Shown: positions 15,267-29,158 of the stretch, piece after piece
Numbering within the stretch: position 1 is the first letter of the stretch
How the letters are laid out: each line of letters opens with the position of its first letter
DNA from: a virus
Lineage: Duplodnaviria > Heunggongvirae > Uroviricota > Caudoviricetes
DNA length: 64,000 nt
Direction: 5' to 3' (one strand)
Virus record (IMG/VR): IMGVR_UViG_3300024270_000011
Notes under the pieces: generated by a model
The model's input: only the letters and a program-made list of their open reading frames with translations
Told to the model about the DNA's origin: nothing
Databases searched by the model: none
Translations under genes and position numbers: made by a program

Positions 15267-15395
15267 AGTATACACCATTTCGGGAGAAATGTCAACAGGT
15301 AATTTTGCACAATTTTCGCTCCAAAACTTTGTGGAATCTGCTAATTGACGAAATTCCGGCCCGCCGCAGGCGAAAACGGCCGGTTTTTGTGCAAA
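15267..15395. repeat. TGCACAA/TTTGTGCA back-to-back promoter cassette, copy 1 (plus-strand -10 missing)
   Basis: Minus TATACT promoter, boxes, TTGACG, GC hairpin. Confidence 0.75.
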
Positions 15396-15429
15396 ATGAC
15401 GAAAAAATCGCCCTTTTGGGGCGATTTTT

Positions 15430-15807
15430 CTACTTTTTCGGCTTTCTTTTCTGCACAAGGGTCAATTCATAGTCATTTTCACCAACTTTGAAGGCGATTT
15501 GGCGCTCTTTATTGGTGATTTCGACCATTTCGTAGCCTTTTTCGCTCAAAAATGCCGAAATTTCTGCAATTATCTGCGATTTTGTCGCATTTTCCTTGCG
15601 AACTGGCGCTTTTCGTGGGGTTTTCACAGTTTTTTCGCCCACATTTGCGTACTTCTTGGCGGCTTTCTCTTCTTCTTTGGAAAGGTCGAAGGACATTCGC
15701 TCGCCCCTGTCGATTGCCTTATCGTCTGCGATGACTTGCAGAGCCTCTTCTTCGCTGATACCCAAATTTTTCATCAGCTTTGCAACCTGTTCTGTCATAG
15801 TTATCAA
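15430..15807 (-). CDS. Hypothetical protein, paralog of 20039..20425
   Basis: LGISEEEALQVIADDKAIDRG vs LGISREEAEQLVADDEAIDKG. Confidence 0.8.
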   Translation of the reverse strand: MITMTEQVAKLMKNLGISEEEALQVIADDKAIDRGERMSFDLSKEEEKAAKKYANVGEKTVKTPRKAPVRKENATKSQIIAEISAFLSEKGYEMVEITNKERQIAFKVGENDYELTLVQKRKPKK

Positions 15808-15921
15808 CTCCTTTACTGTACCCTTATTATAGCACAGTTAAGGCTATCTGTCAAGGGGTTTTGCAAAATTTTTTTCTACCGCCCTTTTAGGGGAGGGGGC
15901 ATTTCTGCCCCCTTGGGGGAG

Positions 15922-16281
15922 TTAGGCTACTTTGGAGAAGTAAGCCTTTCTCTTTTCCTCTGTTCTCTCAACAGAGCCATCAGTTACCAACTGTCTGACA
16001 AGGGCAGACACTCTCTGATTGGACAACTCTGCACACGCAGGCACAGACTTCATCAAATCTGTGATAGTGTACTTCTTGCCGACTTCCATACCTTCAAGGA
16101 TTTCAGCCTTGATGCCTTCGTTGGCAACCTGTACAGCAGTAGGTTTCTTTTCAGCAGAGTTTTTCTTTGCGAGCAATTCCAACTCGTGGTCGATGAACGC
16201 AATCTCGTCTGCGTTCAAGGCATAGTTTGCCTTAATCTGTTCAAACATTTCTCTCTTAGTCATCTTCTTAGTATTAGCCAT
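15922..16281 (-). CDS. 119-aa winged-helix protein, copy 1
   Basis: YTITDLMK...LSNQRVSALVRQLVTDGSVERTEEKRKAYF wHTH. Confidence 0.85.
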   Translation of the reverse strand: MANTKKMTKREMFEQIKANYALNADEIAFIDHELELLAKKNSAEKKPTAVQVANEGIKAEILEGMEVGKKYTITDLMKSVPACAELSNQRVSALVRQLVTDGSVERTEEKRKAYFSKVA

Positions 16282-16531
16282 AGTATCAATTCCTTTCTGG
16301 TTTGTTGGGTTTTCCTTCCCTTTGATGATTTAATTATATCATAGGTTGAGCGATTTGTCAAGAGGTTTTTTGAAGTTTTTTTATTTTTTTTCTCAACTCT
16401 CTGTTGACTTCTCTCTCCCTTTGATGTATTCATTATAGCACATCTTGGGGGATTTGTCAAGAGGTTTTTTGAAATTTCTTAAAAACTTTTTTTGACCTCT
16501 ATCAATTCGGCTCTCCCTTACTGACAATAAT

Positions 16532-16702
16532 AGTATACCACAGACCAAGAGAAAATACAAGTGTCAAAATGCACAAATTTTAGGAAAATTATTTTTTATT
16601 TTTTGTGCAACTTTTCTCTTGACAAAATTTGCGGCCGGTGGTATAATGGAAAATTCCGGTCACGCTGGCCGTGACCGGGCCGGCGCTTTGTGCAAAATGC
16701 AC
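16532..16702. repeat. Back-to-back promoter cassette, copy 2 (both promoters intact)
   Basis: Plus TTGACA 16619, N17, TATAAT 16642; boxes 9 nt from each -35; hairpin CCGGTCACG/CGTGACCGG. Confidence 0.9.
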
Positions 16703-16782
16703 AAAACCCCCAGGGGAGCGAATCACCCCAGGGGTCAAGTGAAAATTGAGAGAGGGGAGGGAGGGGCTTGCGCCCCTTGCCC

Positions 16783-17142
16783 TTAGTCCACCTTGGAGAA
16801 GTAAGCCTTGCGCTTCTCCTCAGTGCGCTCCACAGAACCCTCAGTAACCAGCTGGCGCACCAGTGCGCTCACTCGCTGATTGGAGAGGTCAGCGCACGCA
16901 TCGACACTCTTCATGAGGTCAGTAATGGTGTACTTCTTGCCACTCTCCATGGCTTCGAGGATGTCAGCCTTGATACCCTCATTTGCGACCTGAACCGCAG
17001 TCGGCTTCTTCTCTGCGGAGTTCTTCTTTGCCAGAAGCTCCAGCTCATGCTCAACGAAAGCCTTTTCGTCAGCAGTGAGGTTGTAGTTTGCCATAATCTG
17101 GCGGAAGTAGTCAGCCTTAGTCATCTTCTTAACATTTGCCAT
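16783..17142 (-). CDS. 119-aa winged-helix protein, copy 2
   Basis: Near-identical C-terminal two thirds to copies 1 and 3. Confidence 0.85.
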   Translation of the reverse strand: MANVKKMTKADYFRQIMANYNLTADEKAFVEHELELLAKKNSAEKKPTAVQVANEGIKADILEAMESGKKYTITDLMKSVDACADLSNQRVSALVRQLVTEGSVERTEEKRKAYFSKVD

Positions 17143-17282
17143 AGTATCGTCTCCATTTCTCGCTATTGGTTGCGACCCTTTTTGAAGTTTCGTTCCTCTC
17201 TTGGAACATCTTAATTATACCACATGGGGTTTGATTTGTCAAGAGGTTTTCGAAAAAAATTCGCGACTTTTTTTCTTATCTT

Positions 17283-17466
17283 CGCTACTCGCCCACTTCT
17301 CAGCCTTGTTGCTGGCCCAGCCCTAAGTCTACCCTCACCACGCAATCGCTTTGCCACGCTCTGTGGGGGCTACTGGGATTCGTGTATCCTTTGGGTTTCA
17401 GTTCGCTTCGTGTCTGTTTCCACTGTCCTTGGTGGCTTTCGCTGTCAAGGTTCCCCTCTTGACTGT
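17283..17466 (-). ncRNA. Candidate ~185-nt multi-hairpin ncRNA
   Basis: Starts right after promoter 17494/17471; stems GTCAAG/CTTGAC, CCAC/GTGG, ACTG/CAGT enclosing GGAT/ATCC, AGCCC/GGGCT, GCAA/TTGC, CAGC/GCTG; no RBS-led ORF. Confidence 0.6.
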
Positions 17467-17524
17467 AATCATTATACCACACTTTGCGGTATTTGTCAAG
17501 ACCTTTTTTCAAGATTCTTGACTT

Positions 17525-17706
17525 TTTTGTGTGAGGTATTGTATCGCGCATAATCCCCTATTACTTCAACCTCTGGGGCACTGGTTCACACTTGTATACC
17601 GCAAACGCGAACACCTTGCGGTCAGAAGCAAGAGCCTTGGCTCAAGGGGGAAGTCTTACATCGCTCTCGTGGGCTTCCCTCTTCGGGTCGCTTCCCTTAA
17701 CTTCTG
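17525..17706 (-). ncRNA. Candidate ~180-nt structured ncRNA
   Basis: Starts after promoter 17735/17712; GGGAAG/CTTCCC, CCC-GAAGA-GGG, GAGC-CAAG-GCTC, ACC-GCAA-GGT (GNRA), CCCC/GGGG; no RBS-led ORF. Confidence 0.55.
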
Positions 17707-17808
17707 TATTTATTATAGCACACTCGGCGCTATTTGTCAAGAGGTTTTTTAACTTTTTTCAAAGTTTTTTTGAGCTCCTCTTGGGTGCTCCCCTCACCTG
17801 ACATAGAT

Positions 17809-17960
17809 AGTATACCACATCCAGAAGCAGATTGCAATAGACAGAATGCACAAATTACAGGATTTTTATTTCTCGATCTTTGTGCACATTTTCTCTTGAC
17901 AAAAATGCCGGGGTATGGTATAATGGTAAATTCCGCGCGCTACGTTCGTGCGCGCGGCGC
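17809..17960. repeat. Back-to-back promoter cassette, copy 3 (both promoters intact)
   Basis: Plus TTGACA 17896, TATAAT 17919; hairpin CCGCGCGC/GTGCGCGG-like. Confidence 0.9.
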
Positions 17961-17987
17961 TGAAATCTCAAACAAAAAAGCGAGGGA

Positions 17988-18146
17988 TTAACCCTCGCAT
18001 TCCTCGTTGCGGTCTTCAATTCGTTCCTTGATTGCCTGGATGGTAGTACCAATCAACAGACCAAGCATCTGCACACACAGACAGCCAACAACACCAACGA
18101 GCACCCAACCGATGTGGTCAGGAATTTGACAAATAAGTTCTAACAT
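17988..18146 (-). CDS. 52-aa single-pass membrane peptide
   Basis: MLELICQIPDHIGWVLVGVVGCLCVQMLGLLIG...; own promoter and GAGG RBS; stop lies in the terminator loop. Confidence 0.65.
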   Translation of the reverse strand: MLELICQIPDHIGWVLVGVVGCLCVQMLGLLIGTTIQAIKERIEDRNEECEG

Positions 18147-18203
18147 AGTATCAACCTCTTTCCTTAATTTCTGTATTCATTATACCATGGGGGAGGGCTT
18201 TTG

Positions 18204-18941
18204 TCAAGCCCTTTCCCCACTATTTTTGAAAACTTTTTTCAAGTCCATTTCCTTGCGTGTTCTCTGGGGGATTCTCCAACACGCAGGGGAAATTTTAGTT
18301 TCAAGTTTTCTGTGCATTGCGTAACACTTTGCGAGAATTTCAACTTCAATTCTCACATCCTCAAGTCCTGTGTGGCTTTCCACAAAATCAACTTGCTTTT
18401 TCAGAAACTTGTAACAAGCCTCAGCACTTGTCTGAATGTTGTCGCTTTCGCTAATTAAACCATTCTGTAAAGCAAATTTTACATAGGAAACTTGATTGAG
18501 AACCACTTGACAAGCCATGTTCCAAATGCAAATGTAATCAGTTCCCCAAGGGAAGAACCAACGCCAGCGAGATTGAGAACAATAGCGAATTGTATTATTC
18601 AATGCTCTCTTGTCAAAACCCATGTTGTAAGCACCCACCTTGCGAATGGAATACTTTTTCATGTCCTCATGGATTTGCTTGCGAATGTTGAAAATGCTTT
18701 TCAAAGTGCGAGTGCCATTTTTAATGTCATCCCAATACTGGGGAATCTTTTCAGCAAAGTAGGCACTTTGCATCAAGTCTTTGTGGTCGAGGAACATTTC
18801 AGAAACCACAAAACTTCTTTCAAGGTAAATCTTGCCTTGTCTGTCACAGATTGCATAGCCAATGTCATAGCACAAAGGCTGTTCAATGGTGTTTGCTGTT
18901 TCAGTGTCGATGATTAAAAATAATTCTTTCTTGCGAGCCAT
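18204..18941 (-). CDS. DEDDh (DnaQ-like) 3'-5' exonuclease
   Basis: IIDTET (ExoI), AYNMGFD (ExoII), HTGLED (ExoIII). Confidence 0.9.
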   Translation of the reverse strand: MARKKELFLIIDTETANTIEQPLCYDIGYAICDRQGKIYLERSFVVSEMFLDHKDLMQSAYFAEKIPQYWDDIKNGTRTLKSIFNIRKQIHEDMKKYSIRKVGAYNMGFDKRALNNTIRYCSQSRWRWFFPWGTDYICIWNMACQVVLNQVSYVKFALQNGLISESDNIQTSAEACYKFLKKQVDFVESHTGLEDVRIEVEILAKCYAMHRKLETKISPACWRIPQRTRKEMDLKKVFKNSGERA

Positions 18942-19047
18942 GGGTATCAAATCCTTTCGTATCAACTGTAATTATTATAGCACTTTCATTTTGATTTGTC
19001 AATAGGTTTTTGAAAAATATTTTGCGCCCGGGCGAAAAGCTGACCCA

Positions 19048-19521
19048 TTAAAGGGTCTTGCTTTCGCTCACAAAATACTTCACTTCATACTGTGCGAGAA
19101 TGTCACGCACCTTTGCACTCTCTTTCTGTGTTGCACAGTAGAAATTGAAAAGGGTATATTTTCCAACATTTTCCACATAGTTGTGGGGAATGTCTTTCAA
19201 ATCAAAATGTACTGCGTCAGTCCATTCGTGGGGAACAGTTGCTTCAACTTTCCAAAGTTTGTCCTTGCGTGCCTTTTCTTCGCACCACTTAACAACATAC
19301 ACACCAACAAGGTTGCACAGAGCCACAATGCCAGCCTTTAAGTAAAGGTCAAGTTCACACATTAAGTAAACAGTGACAATTGTGTAAAGACCAAAAGCAA
19401 CAGCATTTACGATTGCGGCGACCCCTTTACCGCACTTCACAGTGGCGATACTTTTCACTGTCTGAATGATAACATTCAGAATGTTAAGAATGATAAATGT
19501 AATAAGTAACTGTGTATTCAT
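19048..19521 (-). CDS. Membrane protein, UPF0316/DUF2179-like
   Basis: Three N-terminal TM helices (NILNVIIQTVKSIATVK...) plus a small cytoplasmic ferredoxin/PII-like domain. Confidence 0.6.
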   Translation of the reverse strand: MNTQLLITFIILNILNVIIQTVKSIATVKCGKGVAAIVNAVAFGLYTIVTVYLMCELDLYLKAGIVALCNLVGVYVVKWCEEKARKDKLWKVEATVPHEWTDAVHFDLKDIPHNYVENVGKYTLFNFYCATQKESAKVRDILAQYEVKYFVSESKTL

Positions 19522-19564
19522 AGCGTTTACCTCTTTCGTTTCTTTCTGTAATTATTATAGCACA

Positions 19565-19810
19565 TCAATGCTCGTTTGTCAATACCTTTTTTTCACTTTT
19601 TATCATATTTTTTGTAAAAGCATCGGAGAACTCATCCCCATACTCATCGCTGACAAGATAGGCGAGGTATTCCATTACAGTGCTCACCCCATACATGAAA
19701 TGCTCATTGCCATTCTTTGCATCGTACCGACCGCAGAACAGACCGCATTCTGTCATTCCGTCAACTACCTTTTCGATTACTTTCTTTTCCTCTTGGTTCA
19801 GTTCTAACAT
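19565..19810 (-). CDS. Hypothetical protein
   Basis: 81 aa from ATG 19810, GGAGG RBS. Confidence 0.7.
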   Translation of the reverse strand: MLELNQEEKKVIEKVVDGMTECGLFCGRYDAKNGNEHFMYGVSTVMEYLAYLVSDEYGDEFSDAFTKNMIKSEKKVLTNEH

Positions 19811-19834
19811 CGTTCTATCCCTCCTGACATTATT

Positions 19835-20035
19835 AGTATACCACGTTTCGGGAGATTTTGCAATAGGCAATTTGCACAAATTTTCGCCCGCATTTTTGTT
19901 GAAATTAACTATTGACAGGAATACCGGCCCGCGCACTTGTGCACGGGCGGCCATTATACCACAGCCGGCCCGATTTGTCAAGTGGTAAAAATGCACAAAA
20001 ATTAGGGCGAAAGTTTGTGACTTTCGCCCATTGAC
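19835..20035. repeat. Back-to-back promoter cassettes, copies 4a and 4b (degenerate plus promoters)
   Basis: Two minus promoters, each with TGCACAAA 9-10 nt from -35; plus TTGACA without -10; GC hairpin between them. Confidence 0.75.
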
Positions 20036-20038
20036 AAG

Positions 20039-20425
20039 TTAGGAACGAGGGGCAGACAGTACCACCTTAAACTTTCGCCCATTGCAGTGGAAAAGCATTT
20101 CCCTCTCGGCGTTCGTAACCTCAATTCCCTCAATGCTTTCCAATCCCTCAAGGGCTTGCTTGATTTCGTCAATCAGCATTGCCTTGTCGTTGTCGGCTTT
20201 GCGTTCTCTCTTGGTTGTGGTCTTGGTTGTGGTGGTGGTCTTTGTTCCAATGGCTCTTGCCTTTTTGCTTGCCTTTTCTTGCTCGGCACTCAACTCAAAG
20301 AGTTTTGCTCCCTTGTCGATTGCTTCATCATCAGCGACCAACTGTTCGGCTTCCTCTCGGCTGATACCTAACAGACCCATGTGCTTGGCAATCAGTTTTT
20401 CTCTCTCGGATGCTGTCATAGGCAA
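20039..20425 (-). CDS. Hypothetical protein, paralog of 15430..15807
   Basis: Same position downstream of a wHTH copy. Confidence 0.8.
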   Translation of the reverse strand: MPMTASEREKLIAKHMGLLGISREEAEQLVADDEAIDKGAKLFELSAEQEKASKKARAIGTKTTTTTKTTTKRERKADNDKAMLIDEIKQALEGLESIEGIEVTNAEREMLFHCNGRKFKVVLSAPRS

Positions 20426-20507
20426 TCCCCCTTTCTGTAATTACATTATACCACACATCAAAGGGGTTGTCAAGGGGAAATTTGCATTTCCCCTTGACTT
20501 TTTTCCC

Positions 20508-20867
20508 TTAGTCAGCGAGGGAGAAATAAGCCTTACGCTTTTCCTCAGTTCGCACAACCACGCCATCAGTGACGAGCTGACGAACAAGAGCAGACACACG
20601 CTGGTTGCTCAGTTCGGCACAGGCAGGAATGGTCTTCATCAGGTCAGTGATGGTGTAGGACTTACCCTGCTCCATACCTGCGACAATGTCGCCCTTAATG
20701 CCCTCATTAGCCACCTGCACAGCGGTAGGCTTCTTCTCGGCACTGTTCTTCTTTGCGAGCAGTTCGAGTTCGTGGTCAATGAACTCAACCTCAGCCTCAG
20801 TCAGAGGGTAGGAAGCCTTAATCTGCTCGAACATCTCACGCTTAGTCATCTTCTTAGTGTTTGCCAT
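20508..20867 (-). CDS. 119-aa winged-helix protein, copy 3
   Basis: MANTKKMTKREMFEQIK start identical to copy 1. Confidence 0.85.
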   Translation of the reverse strand: MANTKKMTKREMFEQIKASYPLTEAEVEFIDHELELLAKKNSAEKKPTAVQVANEGIKGDIVAGMEQGKSYTITDLMKTIPACAELSNQRVSALVRQLVTDGVVVRTEEKRKAYFSLAD

Positions 20868-21220
20868 AGTATCAATCTCCAATCTCGTGGTAGGTCACGA
20901 CCCAAGTTTTTATTCTGTAAGAGGTGTCCCTCTTTACATTCTTATTATAGCACATTGGGAGTTGTTTGTCAAGAGGTTTTTTCAACTTTTTTTTTATTTT
21001 TTTTGTTGACCTCTCAGTAGGTTTTCCCTTACCTTGTATAACTATTATAGCATACTCTTTAGGATTTGTCAATACCTTTTTCAAAACTTTTTTAGAAATT
21101 TTTTGGTAATGGCTTTTTCCTTTTTTCTATAATAATTATAACATAATTTTTTTATTTTGTCAATAGGTTTTTTCAAAATCTTTTTGATGGGATTTTGTTC
21201 TCTCCCTTACTGACAATAAT

Positions 21221-21372
21221 AGTATACCACATCAGCCACCAAAATACAAGTGGCAAATTGCACAAAATTACAGGAAAATCTTTGTGCATTTTGCCTATTG
21301 ACAAATTGCTCGAAAAATGTTATAATGGAAGGTTAGGCCAAAACACCGGTCCGCGCGCACGTGGACCGGCCG
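21221..21372. repeat. Back-to-back promoter cassette, copy 5 (both promoters intact)
   Basis: Plus TTGACA 21298, TATAAT 21321; hairpin CCGGTCC/GGACCGG. Confidence 0.9.
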
Positions 21373-21424
21373 ATGCATTTTGGATTTTGAAATGGAAAAA
21401 GCGAGGGTTTCCCCTCGCTCTTCC

Positions 21425-21577: not shown

Positions 21578-21651
21578 AGTATCATTCTCCTTTTCTTTTG
21601 GTTTGTACTTGTATTATAGCATAGGTTTGGGGGTTTGTCAACCCCCATTTT

Positions 21652-22117: not shown

Positions 22118-22171
22118 TTATCTCACCTCTTGGTATTATTATAGCATACCTTTGGGGGTTTGTCAACCCCC

Positions 22172-22660
22172 TTAGGCAACTTTTTTCTTTCTGCCACGCT
22201 TAGGCACATAGTTTTTGTAGTCCTTGCCACACTTCTGCAAATTGTGGAGAGTGTCGAAAGTGACAATCTGTGCGCCGTTGAATTTGATTTGATACTCAAT
22301 GCCGTTCACATTGACATCACCACCAACCCAAAAGCCGTCATTATCCCAATCTCTTGCGACCTGACCGAAGTATCTCTGTACCCACATTTCAAAGTTTCTG
22401 CCGTTGTTGCCGTTGGTTACTTCGTAGTCGATTTCGATTGCGCCCTTGCGAATGAGCTGTTCCATGTGCTGATTAGTCAGTCGAAGCTGAAGCTTTTCCT
22501 TGCCACCCTTTTTGCTTGCTTCTTTTTCTACTCGAATGAAGCGAGGCATGATTTCATCAACGATTGCCATGTAGTTCTTCTTCTTGTAAGTGAAACCGAG
22601 GATGTAACCCTGTGCGCCACTAAACTTTCTGTAGTATCTGATTGCGTTTCCCTTAGTCAT
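22172..22660 (-). CDS. Putative PD-(D/E)xK-fold protein
   Basis: 162 aa from ATG 22660; NGRNFE...GGDV...YQIK pattern. Confidence 0.5.
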   Translation of the reverse strand: MTKGNAIRYYRKFSGAQGYILGFTYKKKNYMAIVDEIMPRFIRVEKEASKKGGKEKLQLRLTNQHMEQLIRKGAIEIDYEVTNGNNGRNFEMWVQRYFGQVARDWDNDGFWVGGDVNVNGIEYQIKFNGAQIVTFDTLHNLQKCGKDYKNYVPKRGRKKKVA

Positions 22661-22749
22661 TGTTCCTGTCTCCTTTTCTGTTCCGTTCTTTGTATCTTTA
22701 TTATAGCACCGCATTGACCGTTTGTCAAGCACTTTTTTTATTTTTTTTG

Positions 22750-22840
22750 AAAAAGATGAGGGGCTTTTAGGGGCGTCCCCCAAGGGGTTTGAACCCTTTC
22801 TGCTTGAGCGGCTCAGCATTAAACCTCACCCCTCATCTGT
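22750..22840 (-). ncRNA. tRNA-like small RNA with a T-arm
   Basis: AGATGAGGGG/CCCCTCATCT 10-bp terminal stem, TGCTGAG-CCG-CTCAAGCA arm, AAGGG-TTCAAAC-CCCTT T-arm, GGGG-ACG-CCCC arm, 3' T-tract; begins about 6 nt after a -10 box. Confidence 0.65.
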
Positions 22841-22846
22841 AAGTAC

Positions 22847-22998
22847 AGTATAACACACTCCCCAATAGAAGTCAATAGTCAAAATGCACAAATTTCAGGA
22901 ATTTGACCTCTCGCAACTTTGTGCAAATTGCCTATTGACAAAATGCTGAGGAAGTGTTATAATGGAAATTCGTGCCGCCTGGGTCGTGGGCGGCGCGC
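22847..22998. repeat. Back-to-back promoter cassette, copy 6 (both promoters intact)
   Basis: Plus TTGACA 22935, TATAAT 22958; hairpin GCCGCC/GGCGGC. Confidence 0.9.
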
Positions 22999-23014
22999 CA
23001 AAAAGGCGAGAGCG

Positions 23015-23233
23015 TCAAATTGCTCTCGCCCTGATTTGGGTGGGCTTGATGTCTGCGTGACCCTTGTAGGCGTAATACTCAACCCATTCATAGGTGTTGC
23101 CACAGTGGTCACAGCCACCGACCACGCTCATTGCGATTGTGCCTGTGTCGAGGTCTTCAACATCGTAGTGTGAGATAGAAATGAGGGAGCCGCCGCAAGT
23201 GGGGCAAGTGGGTTCATTCGTGTTAATCATCAT
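23015..23233 (-). CDS. Small zinc-ribbon protein
   Basis: CPTCGG...GCDHCG. Confidence 0.7.
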   Translation of the reverse strand: MMINTNEPTCPTCGGSLISISHYDVEDLDTGTIAMSVVGGCDHCGNTYEWVEYYAYKGHADIKPTQIRARAI

Positions 23234-23306
23234 GGGGTATCAGTTCCTTTCCTCTTGGTGTAATTAAATTATAGCACAACGGTTTGAAAATGTCAAGGGG
23301 AAATTC

Positions 23307-23756
23307 TCACATTTCTGCGAGAATTTCCAAGATGTTCTGCACATCATAAGCCTTGCCAGTCCAGTTTGTTCTGTTGCGTTCTTCATCATCGAAAAGCACA
23401 TCGAGAGGAGTTTTGCAGAAGTTCTGCTTTGGTGTGCCGTAAGGTACAATGTGGATTTCGTTCCAGTTGACACTTGGCAGATGTTTCTTGAGCCAATCCA
23501 TTTTGACTTCGGTAACTGCTCTGTTGTATTCTTCTGTGCCACTCTTGCTCAGCCAAGAGATAACTGCGATGTTGTAGCCATTTCTCTGGAGAGTGTTAAG
23601 TCTGCGAGCGAGAGTTGCAAGTCTAAGCAGAGGCTTTGCGTTTGCGTAAGGGAATGTGTCGCCTGCGATGAGGTATTCGAGCCAGTTTTCTACTCCATAG
23701 AGGTCAGCGATTGTGCCGTCCATGTCAAAGTTGATTGTGATGTTCATAGTCTTCAT
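23307..23756 (-). CDS. HAD-family phosphatase (5'(3')-deoxyribonucleotidase-like)
   Basis: FDMDGTIAD motif I, K, and LFDD motif IV. Confidence 0.85.
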   Translation of the reverse strand: MKTMNITINFDMDGTIADLYGVENWLEYLIAGDTFPYANAKPLLRLATLARRLNTLQRNGYNIAVISWLSKSGTEEYNRAVTEVKMDWLKKHLPSVNWNEIHIVPYGTPKQNFCKTPLDVLFDDEERNRTNWTGKAYDVQNILEILAEM

Positions 23757-23867
23757 TGTGTTTACTTCCTTTCCTTTTTTGTATCTTAATTATAGCATGG
23801 ATTTTCGTGTTTGTCAATAGGTTTTTGAAAAGTTTTTTATTTTTTTTGACCGGGGAAAGTGGGGGAC

Positions 23868-24542
23868 TTAGTCCACCCACTTCGGAAAGCACTTGTTGTA
23901 CTCTCTGCCCTTTGCGTCCCACTGGTGAATGTTCTTGTTGAATTTCTTGTGCATTTTCAGACAAGCCACAAAGATTTCCATTTCGATGAGTGCGTCAGCC
24001 AGTGCAGTGTGTTCTTCGATGTAGTCAGCATTTCCAGTGATGAAGCCATAGACAGTCTGTGCAGTAGTAGAGCAAGACTTCTTGGAAGAGGACTGGAAGC
24101 CATTCTCGTGGCAGAAGTTCGCAAAGCCTTTCTTGTGGCAGATGGTCTGCAAAGCCATCAAGTAAATGTCGATGAACTCAAACTCGTCGAGCAGTTCTCT
24201 GCAAATAGTCTTGGTAAAGTCGAAAGCAGAGTTGTAAGCCATTACATAGCGAACACCATAGAACTTGCAAAGGTTGCGAACGATGGAAAGTGCTTCGGCT
24301 TCGGTAGCCACCGCAGACATTTCGCCAGTCATCAGTCTTTCGCGATAGATAGGGAAGTTCTTCTTTGCGTAATCGTCCTGTGCGATTTCGTCATAGTGTT
24401 CCATTACAAGCAGAGAAGCGGTTGCGAAAATGTTGCCCTCTCTGTCGTGGATAGTGCAACCGAGGTTGTACATTCCAGTAGGATTAGAAGCTCCGCCAAC
24501 AGTTTCAGTATCAAGTGTGCAGTAAATAATTTTCTTGTTCAT
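23868..24542 (-). CDS. Second DEDDh 3'-5' exonuclease
   Basis: LDTET, AYNSAFD, HTALAD; paralog of 18204..18941. Confidence 0.9.
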   Translation of the reverse strand: MNKKIIYCTLDTETVGGASNPTGMYNLGCTIHDREGNIFATASLLVMEHYDEIAQDDYAKKNFPIYRERLMTGEMSAVATEAEALSIVRNLCKFYGVRYVMAYNSAFDFTKTICRELLDEFEFIDIYLMALQTICHKKGFANFCHENGFQSSSKKSCSTTAQTVYGFITGNADYIEEHTALADALIEMEIFVACLKMHKKFNKNIHQWDAKGREYNKCFPKWVD

Positions 24543-24649
24543 TGTTATCAATTCCTCTCTCAATTTCTGTATTTATTATAACATAGGTTCGTGGGTTTGT
24601 CAATAGGTTTTTCAAAACTTTTTTAATTTATTTTGTACGGGCGGTTGGC

Positions 24650-25063
24650 TCACATCGAGCCAACCATTGTAATCCCTCTGTCTTTCAACCATTCGCAGAA
24701 CTGTTCAGCAGGGAGCAAGTCCGCAAGGTCTTTCATTGTGTACATTCTTGTAACCTCTTCCCATTCCCACCTGACACGAATGGGCTTGAAAGTCTTTTCT
24801 GTCATTTTGCTTTTGTTTCTGTAGAAGTCGCCCCAACCAATTTCGATGGTCGGACGATTGCGAAATAGAGTGCAACCAGTTTCTGCATTTCTGATTCTGT
24901 GGTCACGAACTGCCGCAAATGCTTCTTCAAAGGTTTCGAGTGTGTATTCTGTCGTGTTACACTCGCCAACTTCCACATAGCGAATGTGATTCCAAATGGA
25001 AGTGTCGCAGTAGTCATCATTGCCGATTGCCGCATAGCATCTAAGGTTTACTAATTTCTTCAT
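24650..25063 (-). CDS. Hypothetical protein
   Basis: 137 aa, own promoter. Confidence 0.75.
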   Translation of the reverse strand: MKKLVNLRCYAAIGNDDYCDTSIWNHIRYVEVGECNTTEYTLETFEEAFAAVRDHRIRNAETGCTLFRNRPTIEIGWGDFYRNKSKMTEKTFKPIRVRWEWEEVTRMYTMKDLADLLPAEQFCEWLKDRGITMVGSM

Positions 25064-25121
25064 AGTATCAATTCCTCTCTCTTGGTTTCTGTAATTATTA
25101 TACCACGGCTTAGGGGTTTTG

Positions 25122-25445
25122 TCAACCCCTAATCGTAAATAATTCTGGATGTCTTTGACAATTTTTCATTACTCGCTTTTCCATTTTAGGTGACATCTGC
25201 CCCTTGCCCGCCATTCTGTAAAGACGATAGCACTGATTGACATTTGCCATAAATGCAGTTATCACAATGTCACGATACAAATTCTTAACAATGATAATTC
25301 CACTACTGGTTAGCAAGTACCTCTTTTCTTCTTCAATTACTTCAACTTCAAGCACAGGGTTTGTGAAGCCGAGAACTTCTTCCAATGCTTGCAGTCGGTT
25401 TGCTCGTTCCACTCCTGCGTGGAATGTAGTATTCATAGGTTTCAT
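25122..25445 (-). CDS. Hypothetical protein
   Basis: 107 aa from ATG 25445. Confidence 0.7.
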   Translation of the reverse strand: MKPMNTTFHAGVERANRLQALEEVLGFTNPVLEVEVIEEEKRYLLTSSGIIIVKNLYRDIVITAFMANVNQCYRLYRMAGKGQMSPKMEKRVMKNCQRHPELFTIRG

Positions 25446-25461
25446 CTTTAGTATCCCCCTT

Positions 25462-25644
25462 TCATGCTCTAAGTATACCATACTTTGAGATGTTTGTCAA
25501 TACCTTTTCGTACCATTTTTTGCGACTTACCAACTTAATGCCGAGAACCTCAGCAACCTTGTTGTAAGTCTGTTCGTCGATTGCGTTGCGTACTTCCTCA
25601 GGCTGTTCGCTCCAAGGTCTGTCAATAGTAATGTTCATCATCAT
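25462..25644 (-). CDS. Hypothetical protein
   Basis: 60 aa, GAGGGGG RBS. Confidence 0.65.
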   Translation of the reverse strand: MMMNITIDRPWSEQPEEVRNAIDEQTYNKVAEVLGIKLVSRKKWYEKVLTNISKYGILRA

Positions 25645-25674
25645 AGTTATTACCCCCTCATCTTTTGTACCTTA

Positions 25675-25795
25675 AGTATACACCATTTCGGGATGTTTGT
25701 CAAGCACAAAATTGCACAAATTTTCCACGAGATTTTTGTGCAGATTACCTCTTGGCAGAAACACCGCGCGCCACAGCCGACAGCGCGCGGCCGAA
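25675..25795. repeat. Back-to-back promoter cassette, copy 7 (plus TTGGCA, no -10)
   Basis: Boxes 9 nt from both -35-like hexamers; hairpin CCGCGCGC/GCGCGCGG. Confidence 0.8.
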
Positions 25796-25824
25796 AAAAT
25801 AAAAAGAGAGGGTTTCCCCTCTCC

Positions 25825-26034
25825 TTAATTGCTCTTGGAACTCGATTTGAAAAAGCCACCTACAAAACTGAGCAGAGCGCAGATGCCGAAAGCCTGCCAA
25901 AATGTTAGAGCAAACGCACAGCCGAACAGGCTCATCACCCAGTTAAACAGAAGCATCCCAATCCATGCCTCGAAACACACAACGCCGAACACCAGTGCCA
26001 GCGCGAGAATTACCATCAAACAACCTTCACCCAT
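25825..26034 (-). CDS. Small two-TM membrane protein
   Basis: 69 aa, hydrophobic with basic tail. Confidence 0.75.
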   Translation of the reverse strand: MGEGCLMVILALALVFGVVCFEAWIGMLLFNWVMSLFGCAFALTFWQAFGICALLSFVGGFFKSSSKSN

Positions 26035-26106
26035 TGTATCTATCTCCTTTTCTTTTCTTTGTATTATTATTATACCATAATTTTAATTGATTGTCAAGGG
26101 GAATTT

Positions 26107-26439
26107 TTACATTCCCCTCATTGTTGTTATTGCTTCCATTACCCACTCTTGAAAGTGAGATTTAATAAATTCTACTGTATCAAGATCAGCGCAATTAAAA
26201 TAATCTTTGCGAATGCGCCGAGCCTTTTGTGTTTTTAGAATTTTCATTCGCAAAAAACTTTCTACAAATAGCCTTTCGCATTCTCCGCCGCCAATGTCTA
26301 ATGATTGAAGAATTAAATAATCTTCTTGGAGCAACTGATTACTTCTACGCCTTGCATTAGTCGTTTCCCCAATTTTGATTGCCGTTCTAATTTCTAAATG
26401 TTCTGCGTAATACACTTCTGAATAACATCCGTAAGCCAT
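26107..26439 (-). CDS. GIY-YIG/T5orf172-like protein
   Basis: IKIGETTNARRRSNQL motif; more AT-rich than its neighbours. Confidence 0.55.
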   Translation of the reverse strand: MAYGCYSEVYYAEHLEIRTAIKIGETTNARRRSNQLLQEDYLILQSLDIGGGECERLFVESFLRMKILKTQKARRIRKDYFNCADLDTVEFIKSHFQEWVMEAITTMRGM

Positions 26440-26518
26440 TTTTACCACTTCTTTCTGTTTCTTTCTGTAATTATTATAGCACAAGGGGTTGAGTTTGTCA
26501 ACCCCTTTTTGCATTTTT

Positions 26519-26944
26519 TTACTTTACTTCAACAATCAGTTTGTAAGCTCGGCAAGAGCCAAAACCATAGCGATTGTAAGTAGTTTCTTCCCACCTTACA
26601 GACAGACAATGCTGAGCAAGATACTCTTCAATGAAAGTCTTGTGATAGTTCTTGTCAGTGCAAGGAGAATAACTCCAATCTCCATTTGCATACTTCTTGC
26701 CATCGAAACGAATAGGACGCAGTACCTCGTTGCCGTAAGCATCGGAAGCCATAGCGAGGTCAATAGAAGTTGAAATCAGTCCACCCTTAGGGTTGAGAGC
26801 CTGCTTCTCAAGGGCAGGTCCAATCTCAGTTTCACAGAATTCAACACTCGCACCCAACAGACGAGCAAGACTTTCTGCCTTTTCTTTTTCCCACTTCATT
26901 ACGCTTGCATTTCTCACAATTGCCAGTTCACTTGCACACATCAT
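26519..26944 (-). CDS. Hypothetical protein
   Basis: 141 aa from ATG 26944, AAGGAG RBS. Confidence 0.7.
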   Translation of the reverse strand: MMCASELAIVRNASVMKWEKEKAESLARLLGASVEFCETEIGPALEKQALNPKGGLISTSIDLAMASDAYGNEVLRPIRFDGKKYANGDWSYSPCTDKNYHKTFIEEYLAQHCLSVRWEETTYNRYGFGSCRAYKLIVEVK

Positions 26945-27032
26945 AGTTATCAGTCTCCTTTTGTTTTCCTTTTTTGTATCTTTATTATAACATGGAGGGG
27001 GCTTTTTGTCAAGCCCCTTTTTTAATTTTTTT

Positions 27033-27287
27033 TTAGCAATCATAAGTGTAACATCCTTCGTAAGGGTCAAAGCCAAAATCGTCATCAATGTCAGCAGGCT
27101 CTTCGTAGTCCTCTTCCTCAGGGTCGTAGAAGGCTACTACTTCGCCAGTTTCATCCCACACAAGGGAAGCAGTCTGGCAAGTCATCTCTGCGATGGTCTT
27201 AGCTGCTTCGTAGCAAGCATAGCAAGCTTCAGTACCACTAATAGTAGCGATAGCGTTGTTGTTAATGTAGATAGTATAAGTGTTCAT
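27033..27287 (-). CDS. Small protein with acidic C-terminus ending GFDPYEGCYTYDC
   Basis: 84 aa from ATG 27287; own promoter. Confidence 0.7.
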   Translation of the reverse strand: MNTYTIYINNNAIATISGTEACYACYEAAKTIAEMTCQTASLVWDETGEVVAFYDPEEEDYEEPADIDDDFGFDPYEGCYTYDC

Positions 27288-27320
27288 AGGTTGTACCTCT
27301 CTCTCTTTCTTTGTATCTAT

Positions 27321-27458
27321 AGTATACCATGCGCGCAGGTATTTTGTCAAGGGTTTTGGGAGATTTATTTTACACAAATTTACGCCGATTTTGCAAGCCT
27401 TTTTTGTGCAGGTTTTACAATAGCACCAATCAGGCGCGCCAGGACCGTGCGCGCGCCT
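27321..27458. repeat. Back-to-back promoter cassette, copy 8 (degenerate)
   Basis: TATACT promoter, TACACAAA/TTTGTGCA, GGCGCGC/GCGCGCC hairpin. Confidence 0.6.
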
Positions 27459-27517
27459 ATGGCGGTCTTTCTGTATTAGTGTAGTATTAGTAGTAGTGTG
27501 TAGTAGCACACACTGCA

Positions 27518-27808
27518 TTAGTGTGTGCTTACTCCTACTACCTCATCATCATAGATGTATCCATCAGTGTGTGCTGTGTACATGTGTACATCTACCACTG
27601 TGCCTACGCTTGGTGCTGTGCCCTCTACCTCATAGCACCACACATGTCCTTGCTTGTCCTCTACCTCTGCAAGCTGTCCTTCTGTGTGTACTACTACGCA
27701 GTCCTTGCGTGTGTAGTGTGTCTCTACGTAGCCGCACAGCCCCAGCATGCCCATGAACACTACTACTACCAACAGTATAGTCATCATCTCTGTTACTCTC
27801 TTACTCAT
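27518..27808 (-). CDS. N-terminally membrane-anchored small protein
   Basis: 96 aa, TILLVVVVFMGMLGLC segment. Confidence 0.7.
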   Translation of the reverse strand: MSKRVTEMMTILLVVVVFMGMLGLCGYVETHYTRKDCVVVHTEGQLAEVEDKQGHVWCYEVEGTAPSVGTVVDVHMYTAHTDGYIYDDEVVGVSTH

Positions 27809-27965
27809 TGTATCTACCTCTTTCTTTACTTCTTTCTTTGTATCTTTATTATACCATTACAGGAGGTTTGTGTCAAGCTTTTTTTACACGTTTGTGCAGA
27901 CTTTTTTCTGTGCCTCCTGGCTCTGTGGCAGTTAGGGATAGCAGGGCCGCACACGGTAGCTACCC

Positions 27966-28301
27966 TTACAGAGTAGCTATTACCTTAGCCAGTGCCTCAG
28001 TATCCATTGCCTCATAGTGTGTCATGATAGTAGCAAGCATAGCCTTTCTCTCTGCTTCTCTCTGTCTCTTAGCTGCTTGTGCTTCTTTGTACTGTGCTAC
28101 CTCTGTTGCGTCGTAGCTGTAGCTCTTCTCTCCGTACATGTATGCTGTGCGCACTGTGCCATCCTCTTGGTGTACGTTGATAGTCTTGCTTGTGTGGTAA
28201 AGCATAGGTCTTGCTTCAGCAGGTGCGCATTCCTTAGTATAGTAGGTGTGTCTGTGTGTCTCATTGTTTCTTACTACGTAGATTGTGCTGATGTGTTTCA
28301 T
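27966..28301 (-). CDS. Hypothetical protein; first gene of the minus-strand array
   Basis: 111 aa from ATG 28301, GAGG RBS, own promoter; contains no Phe. Confidence 0.7.
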   Translation of the reverse strand: MKHISTIYVVRNNETHRHTYYTKECAPAEARPMLYHTSKTINVHQEDGTVRTAYMYGEKSYSYDATEVAQYKEAQAAKRQREAERKAMLATIMTHYEAMDTEALAKVIATL

Positions 28302-28335
28302 TGTGTGTACCTCTCTCTTCCTTTGTTGTACCCTT

Positions 28336-28452
28336 AGTATAACACGTTTCGGGAGGTTTGTCAATAGGTAGATTTGCACAATTGTTGCGCCCTTTATTTG
28401 TGCAAGATGTATACCATGCCAACCAGGGCCGCGCCATCCATGCACGGCCCAG
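28336..28452. repeat. Back-to-back promoter cassette, copy 9
   Basis: TATACT promoter, TGCACAA/TTTGTGCA, GGGCCG/CGGCCC hairpin. Confidence 0.75.
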
Positions 28453-29156: not shown

Positions 29157-29158
29157 AA

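Follow-up and report, generated by a model that had tools for sequence, protein, structure and literature searches.

Divergent promoters, TTGTGCA half-sites and a covarying GC hairpin form a conserved cassette that apparently starts some early operons in a 192-kb gut phage and its relatives

The window analysed here, a stretch of 64,000 nt from the 192-kb genome of a gut phage, contains ten copies of a back-to-back promoter cassette between positions 15267 and 28450 (Table 1), and such cassettes are conserved in more than 100 uncultivated relatives. Their dispersed occurrence had been predicted from the window and was confirmed, although the number was ten rather than about nine. Four are complete, with perfect backward promoters (TTGACA-N17-TGnTATAAT) exactly at 16619, 17896, 21298 and 22935 as claimed, each followed by GG(A/T)AA(A)TTC and a GC hairpin. 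The expected decay of the other copies was also seen, six cassettes lacking the -10 and retaining, beside the box, a hexamer resembling a -35 with a hairpin 5-6 nt past it, the weakest of them at 27848-27960. In cassette 4 the hairpin is driven from the opposite side by a minus-strand promoter, P2. A canonical minus-strand terminator precedes each cassette in the window, with the hairpin always just past it, and the GC-rich islands of the genome are almost restricted to the cassettes (8 of 12 lie inside them). The cassette is a subclass, a minority among approximately 40 near-perfect early promoters at 14-31 kb.

The gene-ward promoter, P1, is sub-consensus, with a weak -35 and a -10 of TGnTATACT, and carries the TCCCGAAAT motif twice, in the spacer and immediately upstream of the box. 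The minus promoters adjoining the box had been said nearly always to use TATACT as -10, which holds in nine of the ten cassettes, and this association of TATACT with the box (Fisher p = 6e-5) sets P1 apart from the constitutive promoter class. Back to back with P1 stands the perfect backward promoter, Prev, which reads TTGACA-17-TGnTATAAT followed by GG. Each promoter is preceded by a TTGTGCA half-site in the promoter's own orientation and in helical register.

Table 1. Positions in the window of the ten cassettes, part by part, and of the neighbouring winged-helix genes
Feature	Span	Strand (P1 or gene)	P1	Half-sites (spacing)	Prev or backward arm	Hairpin	Terminator and other parts
Cassette 1, short form	15267-15393	minus	-10 TATACT 15267-15272; -35 15290-15295	TGCACAA 15306-15312, TTGTGGA 15329-15335 (16 nt)	-35-like TTGACG 15345-15350	GC, 15356-15383	additional TTGTGCA 15387-15393, then bidirectional terminator 15402-15430
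Cassette 2, complete	16532-16704	minus	-10 16532-16537; -35 TTGTAT 16555-16560	16570-16576, 16603-16609 (26 nt)	-35 16619-16624; -10 16642-16647, then GGAAAATT	16656-16678	stand-alone palindrome TTGTGCA-AAA-TGCACAA 16688-16704
Cassette 3, complete	17809-17998	minus	-10 17809-17814; -35 TTGCAA ending at 17837	17847-17853, 17880-17886 (26 nt)	-35 17896-17901; -10 17919-17924	17933-17957	terminator of upstream minus-strand operon 17980-17998
Cassette 4, forward (P2) form	19835-20029		-10 19835-19840; -35 TTGCAA ending at 19863	19873-19879, variant TTGTTGA 19896-19902 (16 nt)	dead; sole remnant -35 19912-19917	19924-19952	P2 (minus): -10 TATAAT+GG 19953-19958, -35 19976-19981, own box 19992-19998; upstream terminator 20005-20029
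Cassette 5, complete	21221-21419	minus	-10 21221-21226; -35 TTGTAT 21244-21249	21259-21265, 21282-21288 (16 nt)	-35 21298-21303; -10 21321-21326	21346-21369, 17 nt farther from GG than in other copies	terminator 21400-21419
Cassette 6, complete	22847-23030		-10 22847-22852; -35 TTGACT 22870-22875	22885-22891, 22919-22925 (27 nt)	-35 22935-22940; -10 22958-22963	22972-22996	terminator of upstream operon 23005-23030
Cassette 7, short form	25675-25823		-10 25675-25680; -35 25698-25703	25713-25719, 25736-25742 (16 nt)	-35-like TTGGCA 25752-25757	25764-25790; no promoter reading into stem from either side	terminator 25806-25823
Cassette 8, short form	27321-27458		-10 27321-27326; -35 27345-27350; spacer 18 nt	TACACAA 27371-27377, TTGTGCA 27404-27410 (26 nt)		27432-27458	
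Cassette 9, most decayed	27848-27960	minus	-10 TATAAT 27848-27853; -35 27871-27876	one box copy, 27892-27898		downstream GC-rich fold weak, irregular	
Cassette 10, short form	28336-28450		-10 28336-28341; -35 28359-28364	28375-28381, 28398-28404 (16 nt)		28426-28450	
Winged-helix paralogue 1, 119 aa	15922-16281	minus					behind cassette 2 P1 and stacked perfect promoters 16460, 16361
Winged-helix paralogue 2, 119 aa	16783-17142	minus					behind cassette 3 P1 and stacked perfect promoters 17740, 17499, 17242
Winged-helix paralogue 3, 119 aa	20508-20867	minus					behind cassette 5 P1 and stacked perfect promoters 21163, 21072, 20972

The window has 19 copies of the TTTGTGCA box where 4.65 would be expected, a count reached in none of 100 shuffles, with 18 of the 19 within 15386-28404, and in the whole 192-kb genome there are 26 copies compared with one of the reversed control. 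The box-to--35 distance, predicted to be fixed, is 9-10 nt in the window and the same on both arms. At phage loci selected by their winged-helix protein and not by the box, it was 9 (n=58), 10 (21), 19 (9) or 20 (4) nt, no other spacing being found between 3 and 24 nt. The box-to-box distance had been thought variable, but in the window cassettes the 7-mers lie 16 or 26-27 nt apart (16, 26, 26, 16, 16, 27, 16, 26 and 16 nt), and the separations of tail-to-tail pairs have two maxima, 26 nt (67 contexts) and 16 nt (55), differing by one helical turn. Head-to-head TTGTGCA/TGCACAA pairs are spaced by 3 nt in 24 distinct contexts, with other close spacings absent, and such palindromes are also located away from promoters. 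The proposal of one operator per promoter near -50, rather than a palindrome, thus stands insofar as each promoter has its half-site, but not with respect to the strict 3-nt palindromes and the phase-locking of the cassette boxes at 16/26 nt. Because of these two spacing rules, TTGTGCA fits a putative operator half-site for a dimeric DNA-binding protein. Among 151 Oscillospirales genomes the 9-nt arrangement of box and -35 was not enriched (25 hits, compared with a mean of 19.4 per spacing over 3-16 nt), so the arrangement looks phage-specific.

It is unlikely, in our judgement, that TTTGTGCA is instead an add-on of host-type promoters (a UP-like element, or a site bound by a global regulator of the host) that the host's RNA polymerase or some host factor recognises, in which case the cassette would be two strong promoters with a common host signal and not the target of a phage protein. 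The alpha-CTD subsites of UP elements lie at a similar position, and the box is found at -52 to -45 in the promoter's own orientation, 9 nt or one helical turn farther from the -35. In four Clostridia MAGs TTTGTGCAWWT outnumbered its reversed control 4- to 10-fold, with copies on many non-phage contigs. MAGs also contained 3-nt-spaced palindromes, 2-8 in each genome where the control gave 0, and the box stands 9 nt before TTGAC with a plausible -10 at some Oscillospirales genes (NrdD, a HisS-like gene, an aminotransferase, an ABC ATPase and a MarR). However, the 151 Oscillospirales genomes show no spacing preference (9 nt: 25 vs 19.4 per spacing), and the excess over the reversed control reflects composition, whereas spacing at the phage loci is exclusively 9-10 or 19-20 nt. 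Matches to box-N9-TTGAC in the four MAGs were nearly all on phage contigs, and in one long-read Oscillospiraceae genome the box had no promoter after it, several copies being merely the ends of terminator U-tracts. The invariant GTGC core, in contrast to UP elements, is not A/T-rich, and the strict 3-nt palindromes distant from promoters point to a dimeric protein.

Conservation of the cassette in related phages, suspected originally, is borne out by an exact 22-base core found in 96 IMG/VR stretches (approximately 90 distinct instances) and 24 MAG contigs and by a covariance model with 130 matches, 101 of them distinct; the -35, -10, TG and GG of Prev are all kept in well over 100 distinct instances from diverged phages. 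The backward promoters had been said to face no gene. Of 97 in relatives, 85 lack any ORF with a ribosome-binding site over the next 300 nt, and most of the other 12 are P2 units of the forward type that are stacked on a second promoter. Prev faced a convergent gene 67 times and a co-oriented one 12 times, and in about a third of the Prev units of relatives (44/143) a convergent promoter lies across the hairpin. A second hairpin with a U-rich tail was reached by just 16-26 of 143 units, and consequently a discrete short RNA from Prev is not predicted.

The hairpin folds at -10 kcal/mol or stronger in 85 of 88 instances, starting 0-1 or approximately 6 nt past TATAATGG. Among 984 distinct perfect promoters of relatives, the 158 with GG had a mean fold of -18.3 kcal/mol, 95.6% being at -10 or below, compared with -4.3 kcal/mol and 13% for the 826 without GG. 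Stem cells were paired in 86.8% of cases, against 68.2% when shuffled and 30-44% with a slid partner, and two-sided pair changes affected 147 cells where 52.8 were expected, none of 500 shuffles being as high. The persistence of the hairpin with different sequence, as first noticed in the window, therefore reflects a structure under selection whose stem is kept by covariation. Because G:U pairs (12) were not commoner than A:C (18), pairing being almost purely Watson-Crick, the stems do not identify a transcribed strand, and a function at the DNA level or on both strands would fit equally well. Cassettes 1, 7, 8 and 10 retain a perfect hairpin although neither side has a promoter reading it, which argues for a Prev-independent role or for recent promoter losses. 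On the Prev strand a U-tract after the hairpin is absent in most instances, and the apex carries a partly conserved CG-NN-CG / CGT motif.

These features bear on two further readings. That Prev yields an abundant, tiny and very stable hairpin RNA acting in trans, whether by titrating a host RNase or RNA-binding protein (decoy or sponge) or by blocking a sensor, with the position of neighbouring genes incidental, seems quite improbable. The perfect Prev with its optimal GG discriminator, a hairpin 1-5 nt from the predicted 5' end, the covarying stem with its partly conserved apex and the several copies per genome would suit such an RNA, but most copies lack a terminator after the hairpin, the stem pairing is no evidence for either strand as RNA, promoterless orphan hairpins persist, and the location beside terminators, like the opposition to genes, departs strongly from random; moreover, hairpin sequences differ among the copies of one genome, and there is therefore no single trans target or mimic. 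Very doubtful, too, is a mainly structural barrier between operons, a back-up two-way terminator or protector of RNA ends, with the backward promoters being inverted duplicates of forward P2-type promoter-hairpin units, tolerated rather than selected. The hairpin does invariably lie just past a canonical terminator, outlives loss of the Prev -10 and shows the near-pure Watson-Crick pairing expected of a structure used on both strands; cassette 4 and 12 relatives have the promoter-hairpin unit facing forward, and, from inspection of the sequence, the short form could arise by deletion between AAAATT repeats flanking the spacer and the -10. Against this, neither strand has a proper U-tract past the stem, and retention of a perfect Prev (-35, -10, TG, GG) in more than 100 distinct instances is not a relic-like pattern.

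The other arm most often drives a gene of a MarR/ArsR-like winged-helix family (fold and profile MarR/ArsR/BlaI-like), which lies behind three to four stacked perfect promoters. The nearest divergent gene was of this family in 47 of 72 cases, 33 of 60 distinct winged-helix upstream regions held a backward perfect promoter and hairpin, and the family is encoded in all five further whole records tested, a co-occurrence that is not phylogenetically independent. The original nomination of the winged-helix proteins as readers gains from this association, by which the family would be the best candidate; as counter-evidence, the recognition helix varies (NQR, NQK, SQK, TSK) across phages with an identical box.

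Least probable, and highly unlikely, is that the cassettes are PeSL-like recombination modules whose promoter and hairpin repeats mainly shuffle early genes between phages, as described for T4-type phage PeSLs (PMC2839356, PMC4122927). Genes beside cassettes do vary between relatives. In comparison with a relative approximately 70-78% identical, the 7-8 kb separating conserved blocks are replaced, one cassette lies at a different gene junction, and the window has an extra module of cassette plus winged-helix gene. The mobility system once suggested is nevertheless not supported, as only module-level gain and loss was seen, with no mechanism, and no indel with breakpoints inside cassettes was resolved among relatives either too diverged or too similar. 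Selection for a regulatory function is shown by the rules of spacing and the covarying stem, and recombination would be a side effect.

The interpretation we prefer, with about an even chance of being right, is that of a node under operator control, in which the backward arm makes a counter-transcript, non-coding and capped by the hairpin, that opposes transcription from the upstream operon. The cassette would control early transcription at operon boundaries, directly past the terminator of the upstream operon. We infer that regulation would come from a dimeric DNA-binding protein, possibly of the neighbouring winged-helix family expressed from its stacked constitutive promoters, which on the half-sites and 3-nt palindromes would set the balance of P1 against Prev. 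Prev would fire against the upstream operon or, in approximately one third of relatives, against a convergent P2 with a common hairpin, and its presumed product is a non-coding counter-transcript capped at the 5' end by the hairpin a few bases past the predicted start. Such a transcript may keep constitutive upstream transcription out of the regulated operon by occupancy, head-on collision and antisense pairing. The node is conserved, apparently has no prior description and apparently starts some early operons in this phage and its relatives.

Several known systems share parts of this design. UP elements are alpha-CTD sites at -40 to -60, and the box resembles them in its position (-52 to -45), its promoter-tied orientation and its tolerance of a one-turn shift; its core, however, is invariant with G/C, the heptamer makes 3-nt palindromes away from promoters, and the box stands in place of the A-tract element of the phage's box-less promoters. 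The Rex operator of Gram-positive bacteria, TTGTGAA-W4-TTCACAA (PMC2883068), is also an inverted repeat, has outer pentamers (TTGTG ... CACAA) identical to those of the phage palindrome, and is read by a winged-helix dimer, as proposed here. The phage palindrome TTGTGCA-N3-TGCACAA is, however, one base pair shorter with different inner bases, and the 119-aa phage proteins lack a Rex-like Rossmann domain. OOP RNA of phage lambda, from promoter pO, is a discrete transcript of 77 nt that ends at a terminator of its own and has one target. Prev is similar as a strong ORF-less promoter directed towards the 3' end of a convergent early gene, but most copies of the cassette lack a terminator for its transcript, different phages have different facing genes, and it is the divergent gene that is conserved as a partner.

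In B. subtilis, helD and pps are under dual convergent-promoter control (Sudzinova et al., NAR 2026, PMC12802891, with a search motif that has a -10 to -10 distance of 45-55 bp). There, as in the convergent-promoter interference of phage 186 pR/pL, a strong antisense promoter without a product of its own faces a sense promoter or incoming transcription upstream of a gene. Two promoters similarly converge on the hairpin in 44 of 143 relatives and in cassette 4; the -10 to -10 distance is approximately 38 bp in the phage cassette, with the gap filled by the covarying GC hairpin, operator half-sites are present, and most window copies oppose a terminated operon rather than a promoter. The PeSL (promoter-early stem-loop) cassettes of T4-type phages place a stem-loop upstream of a forward promoter driving an ORF (Arbiol et al. 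2010, PMC2839356; Comeau et al. 2014, PMC4122927). A PeSL and the present cassette are alike as repeated composite units in which a stem-loop accompanies an early promoter of near-perfect sigma-70 type, and in both cases the copies are scattered through the small and variable early genes of a large phage of virulent type. The closest counterparts here are the box-less promoters of the window, several of which have the -35 inside a hairpin loop. In the present cassette, by contrast, the perfect promoter points backwards with the hairpin within the transcript and no ORF after it, and phase-locked TTGTGCA half-sites and a second, divergent promoter are added.

The box, a TTGTGCA half-site upstream of each promoter's -35, was both enriched and clustered in the window: TTTGTGCA was present in 19 copies against 4.65 expected, with 18 of these within 15386-28404. 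The dispersed back-to-back promoter cassettes were also found, although they numbered ten rather than about nine. Four are complete, with the perfect plus-strand promoters exactly where they had been predicted; in these a backward promoter (Prev) reads the GC hairpin and a gene-ward promoter (P1) points the other way. A fifth cassette has a minus-strand promoter (P2) that reads its hairpin from the far end. Of the remaining five, four are short forms and one is badly decayed. The short forms retain a -35-like hexamer followed after 5-6 nt by the hairpin, with loss of the -10, and may have arisen by deletion between two AAAATT copies, one at the start of the spacer and the other behind TATAATGG. 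Every cassette in the window lies directly past a canonical minus-strand terminator, and GC-rich islands of the 192-kb genome are nearly restricted to cassettes. In cassettes 8 and 10 the hairpin gives way to odd low-complexity tracts (TAGTA, TGTG and TATT-rich).

Positions of cassette components and neighbouring features in the window
Feature	Position	Strand	Remark
Cassette 2, Prev	16619	plus	complete
Cassette 3, Prev	17896	plus	complete
Cassette 5, Prev	21298	plus	complete
Cassette 6, Prev	22935	plus	complete
Cassette 4	19835-20029		P2-driven hairpin
Stand-alone palindrome	16688-16704		
TCCCGAAAT copies (examples)	15276-15284, 25684-25692		
P1 transcript starts	16501-16530, 21190-21219		predicted
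Promoter stacks	16333-16460, 17214-17740, 20944-21163		before winged-helix paralogues
Hairpins with -35 in loop	18189-18217, 20469-20498, 21628-21647, 26097-26118, 26483-26507, 26994-27021		T-run on plus strand
Winged-helix paralogues 1-3	15922-16281, 16783-17142, 20508-20867	minus	119 aa each
Paralogous 122- and 126-aa proteins	15430-15798, 20039-20419	minus	no known family; immediately follow winged-helix paralogues 1 and 3
Exonuclease-like paralogues	18204-18941, 23868-24551	minus	phrog_20187; weak match to DNA polymerase exonuclease subunit
Small hydrophobic proteins	17988-18146, 25825-26034	minus	52 and 69 aa
Low-complexity tracts	27460-27560, 28450-28560		cassettes 8 and 10
Promoter-distal end of early block	28818-30282	minus	peptidase S24-like protein, AbrB/MazE-fold protein, FolD homologue (methylene-tetrahydrofolate dehydrogenase/cyclohydrolase)
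Sigma factor	30952-32004	plus	opens late block

The architecture proposed from this single sequence proved to be present in relatives. The pattern TTTGTGCA-N9-TTGACA-N17-TATAATGG was observed in 96 IMG/VR stretches (approximately 90 distinct instances) and in 24 MAG contigs; the IMG/VR contigs with the exact pattern range from 4.7 to 402 kb and are mostly >80 kb, and as the pattern has 22 fixed bases essentially zero chance matches are expected. Upstream of the box the consensus reads TGCACAAATTTCGGGA-N16. A hairpin of -10 kcal/mol or below, starting 0-1 or approximately 6 nt past the GG, was present in 85 of 88 instances. The correspondence between TATAAT+GG and the hairpin is almost one to one: 95.6% of 158 such promoters fold at -10 or below (mean -18.3), compared with 13% of 826 other perfect promoters from the same loci (mean -4.3). 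A covariance model built from 36 copies gave 130 matches, 101 of them distinct, from 93 sources. Stem cells in the resulting alignment were paired in 86.8% of cases, compared with 68.2% when shuffled and 30-44% with the partner slid, and 147 cells carried a double change against 52.8 expected (0 of 500 shuffles reached 147), these statistics being derived from related sequences in an alignment fitted to the model. Middle stem positions swap C:G and G:C freely, the outer C:G and inner CGC/GCG hardly vary, and the apex is partly conserved as CG-NN-CG. G:U pairs (12) were not above A:C (18), so the pairing does not indicate which strand, if any, functions as RNA.

When tested as an intrinsic terminator the hairpin had the GC stem but no direct U-tract on either strand; on the Prev strand the stem leads into CC and then an A-run or CCAUUAUAC, and its gene-strand tail is GAAAUUUCC. 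Searches of Rfam 15 gave no match at the gathering score and chance-level matches only at E up to 1, and no tRNA or tmRNA was detected. A Z-DNA or Z-alpha reading of the CG-rich stems was rejected since many stems are non-alternating and no Z-alpha signature was found in Pfam, N4-type hairpin promoters on account of the excessive length and variability of stems and loops and the presence of a sigma-A promoter, and a CRISPR-repeat mimic or anti-CRISPR RNA since hairpin sequences are unlike between copies of one genome.

The cassettes form a subclass within a larger array: between 14 and 31 kb the gene strand bears approximately 40 near-perfect promoters of the sigma-A type. The box-less class from 14000 to 31000 on the minus strand comprises approximately 30 perfect promoters of the form TTGACAAA-N-TGnTATAAT (TTGACA-N17-TGnTATAAT), roughly one per small gene, all with an A-rich tract (AAAAAGTTTTGAAAAAACCTM) upstream and a start region conserved as AATTACAGAAA. 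As a repeat family these are far larger than the cassettes. The box-linked P1 class has a TATACT -10, a -35 that is often weaker (TTGCAA, TTGTAT or TTGACT) and TCCCGAAAT in the spacer, and TATACT is associated with the box (Fisher p = 6e-5). The -35 of both cassette arms begins 9-10 nt past the box. Gene-ward box promoters carry TCCCGAAAT twice, once between the -35 and the -10 and once adjoining the upstream side of the box, where the opposite strand reads AAATTTCGGGA; the motif is also kept in relatives. Predicted P1 transcripts have a start conserved across relatives over the first 20 nt or so (ATTATTGTCAGnAAGGGAGAG), which may act as a 5' stabiliser; it contains a purine run resembling a Shine-Dalgarno sequence, which no ORF follows in leaders from stacked promoters. 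Each of the three winged-helix paralogues lies behind P1 and a stack of 2-3 further perfect promoters. These are spaced by 90-260 nt, the intervals hold no convincing ORF, and transcripts arising there could be small RNAs or leaders. Several box-less promoters, unlike the cassettes, have their -35 inside the loop of a GC hairpin, and with a T-run on the opposite strand these hairpins would double as terminators for antisense transcription.

The distance between boxes had been thought to be free. This was wrong, as pairs are phase-locked at 16 or 26 nt: tail-to-tail pairs had sharp peaks at 16 nt, with 55 contexts, and at 26 nt, with 67, and the nine pairs in the window are spaced by 16, 26, 26, 16, 16, 27, 16, 26 and 16 nt. 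Every closely spaced head-to-head TTGTGCA...TGCACAA pair in the phage loci (24 distinct contexts) had a gap of exactly 3 nt, and the window contains a stand-alone TTGTGCA-N3-TGCACAA palindrome between hairpin and terminator, away from promoters. In loci fetched via the winged-helix protein, and hence unselected for the box, TTGAC followed TTTGTGCA after 9 (58), 10 (21), 19 (9) or 20 (4) nt and at none of the other spacings from 3 to 24 nt. Given this quantisation by one turn and the strict stand-alone palindrome, the box, a fixed-spacing repeat in register with promoters, looks like the half-site of a dimeric DNA-binding protein. The Rex operator, TTGTGAA-N4-TTCACAA (PMC2883068), differs from the phage palindrome, which has a 3-nt spacing and CA/TG as inner bases. 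An UP element (A/T-rich, -40 to -60, alpha-CTD) agrees with the box in position, but the GTGC core of the box is invariant. Likeness of the inter-box region to Spo0A (TGNCGAA) or CodY boxes was rejected, there being partial matches only, and a literature search for the box motif returned only primer-sequence noise.

In four phage-containing MAGs nearly all box-N9-TTGAC matches were on phage contigs. The 151 genomes from the order of one Oscillospiraceae MAG gave 25 matches compared with 1 for the reversed control, and several of these precede ordinary genes with a plausible -10. However, the same genomes gave 271 matches at any spacing of 3-16 nt, equivalent to 19.4 per spacing, indicating that 9 nt is not preferred in host genomes; the excess over the reversed control is due to the general abundance of TTTGTGCA, partly as the tails of terminator U-tracts. 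In the Oscillospiraceae MAG G001, TTTGTGCAWWT is often located directly after a terminator hairpin as the end of the U-tract (…TTTTTTGTGCAAAT; for example C3:451794, C3:784366, C3:1077647 and C3:1105307), which accounts in part for the large excess of the octamer over its reverse. For the 151 genomes sampled, the box was therefore rejected as a general host promoter element. Among the genomes searched, which came from a putative host group, and with an exact TTGAC demanded, the phase-locked arrangement is phage-specific.

The gene most often transcribed away from a complete cassette encodes a member of a winged-helix family of 113-139 aa. In 47 of 72 cases no divergent gene lay closer, the usual distance to the box being 220-700 nt, and all five whole records whose stretch was without the gene encode the family elsewhere. 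When loci were chosen by the protein, a backward perfect promoter with hairpin was present in 33 of 60 distinct upstream regions, and the seeming absence of the box from some regions reflected a shift one turn outward. An AlphaFold model (mean pLDDT 86) has two N-terminal helices followed by a winged helix, with weak but consistent profile and fold matches to MarR, ArsR/SmtB, BlaI/MecI, TubR and the Hop2/Mnd1 winged helix. The recognition helix reads x-Q-[RK] in most members, not all, and the box is identical throughout. The association and the suitable fold suggest that this neighbouring family is probably the reader of the half-site, and we treat it as the candidate. Of the 96 stretches from relatives, 29-38 encode homologues of the 122- and 126-aa proteins, in most cases beside a winged-helix gene, and these proteins are likely functional partners of the winged-helix protein.

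The prediction that the plus promoters face no gene held for 85 of 97 Prev-like units, behind which there was no RBS-bearing ORF; the remaining 12 were mostly forward-type (P2) and stacked on P1. In relatives the gene facing Prev was convergent in 67 cases and co-oriented in 12, its identity varying, and was convergent in all four complete window cassettes. In 44 of 143 distinct Prev units a convergent promoter lies opposite, its -10 directly adjoining the hairpin at the far end, an arrangement seen in one of the ten window cassettes; 55 run into the reverse complement of a terminator without a U-rich tail, 16 are without a second hairpin and 2 have one only farther off. Like the promoter of an OOP-type cis-antisense sRNA, Prev is directed against a gene's 3' end, but such an sRNA has its own terminator and a defined short length, whereas only 16 of the 143 units (plus 10 weaker) reach a second hairpin with a U-rich tail. 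Assuming standard -10 to +1 distances, the AAATTTC spacer of 6-7 nt would put the Prev RNA start 1-5 nt before the stem, and in the P2 orientation the predicted start falls inside the stem. Hairpins with a -35 in their loop would end the plus-strand RNAs from Prev 17896 and 21298 after approximately 300 nt, spanning genes of 52 and 50 aa; these stops fit real antisense transcription at these two promoters and are not general. The last genes of the operons faced by cassettes 3 and 7 encode small, strongly hydrophobic proteins, and the other two genes opposite complete cassettes encode soluble ones. A type I toxin logic for Prev-facing genes was rejected, since two are small and hydrophobic but two are soluble and the facing gene varies among relatives.

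We hold with moderate confidence that the cassette is an operator-controlled junction between early operons, at which the Prev counter-transcript opposes upstream transcription. P1 would be the regulated, sub-consensus promoter, and Prev, a perfect promoter from which no protein would be made, would fire against whatever comes from upstream. The half-site protein, probably of the neighbouring winged-helix family, would set the balance between P1 and Prev, and the hairpin would cap and stabilise the counter-transcript, aid release of head-on polymerases, or both. Against this stand four orphan hairpins in the genome that no promoter reads, the hairpin's want of a U-tract and pairing without strand asymmetry. 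A second reading, which we consider rather unlikely, is that of a protein-operated insulator or toggle, in which a winged-helix dimer on the phase-locked half-sites would pick the backward or the gene-ward arm and the hairpin would release colliding polymerases without a U-tract. Loading of the backward arm would then block and antisense-silence the output of the upstream operon, and a row of constitutive early operons would become separately timed units. If the operator-controlled junction is correct, a protein-less backward promoter would split stacked, extremely strong host-type promoters into regulated units, a design useful for synthetic biology in Gram-positive hosts.

The window comes from a 191,974-bp IMG/VR virus record, 98% complete by CheckV, in which it occupies bases 61196-125195 on the minus strand. 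Near-identical sequence is located approximately 1.2 kb from one end of the record and 0.5 kb from the other, suggesting a terminal repeat or a circularly permuted assembly; the IMG/VR class is linear ends. GC skew and an ORF map placed genes from 1 to 30.8 kb on the minus strand and a late block on the plus strand from 30.9 kb, beginning with a phage sigma factor followed by portal and head genes. The sigma factor faces the promoter-distal end of the early block. Near and distant nucleotide searches of INPHARED gave zero matches for cultured relatives, and the winged-helix protein search a single match, to one unannotated faecal contig. By portal identity the nearest deposited phages are distant kin (phAss-1, 38%; Enterococcus phages, 30%). 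Most cassette-bearing MAG contigs fell into bins of Oscillospiraceae, Acutalibacteraceae, Lachnospiraceae or other Clostridia, which hints at a host group and nothing beyond. For these large uncultivated phages of gut Clostridia there is no genetic system.

Comparison with the complete relative G160, approximately 70-78% identical, revealed differences at the level of modules. The two genomes are collinear in the blocks surrounding the winged-helix and exonuclease-like genes, a region of 7-8 kb with cassettes 6-10 is replaced, and one cassette is at another gene junction. The window has one extra module of cassette plus winged-helix gene, also seen as a 300-nt repeat 861 nt apart. These differences are compatible with recombination at repeated control sequences, of the kind that PeSL-type indels would involve. 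The exonuclease-like pair is conserved in more than 50 relatives' stretches.

Whatever its function, the signature TTGTGCA-N9-TTGACA-N17-TATAATGG with its hairpin specifically marks early regions in this group of phages. Genomes carry several copies of this short and sharply delimited unit, which occurs on well over a hundred phage contigs, and its rules are a 7-bp half-site, spacings of 3, 16/26 and 9/19 nt, TATAAT+GG and a covarying hairpin. The closest published concepts, PeSL cassettes (PMC2839356, PMC4122927) and convergent-promoter interference (PMC12802891), do not describe this architecture. In a helD-type switch the -10s are 45-55 bp apart, whereas the gap in the cassette is approximately 38 bp. 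PeSL cassettes carry a stem-loop immediately upstream of a forward early promoter driving a small ORF, whereas the hairpin described here lies downstream of a backward promoter.
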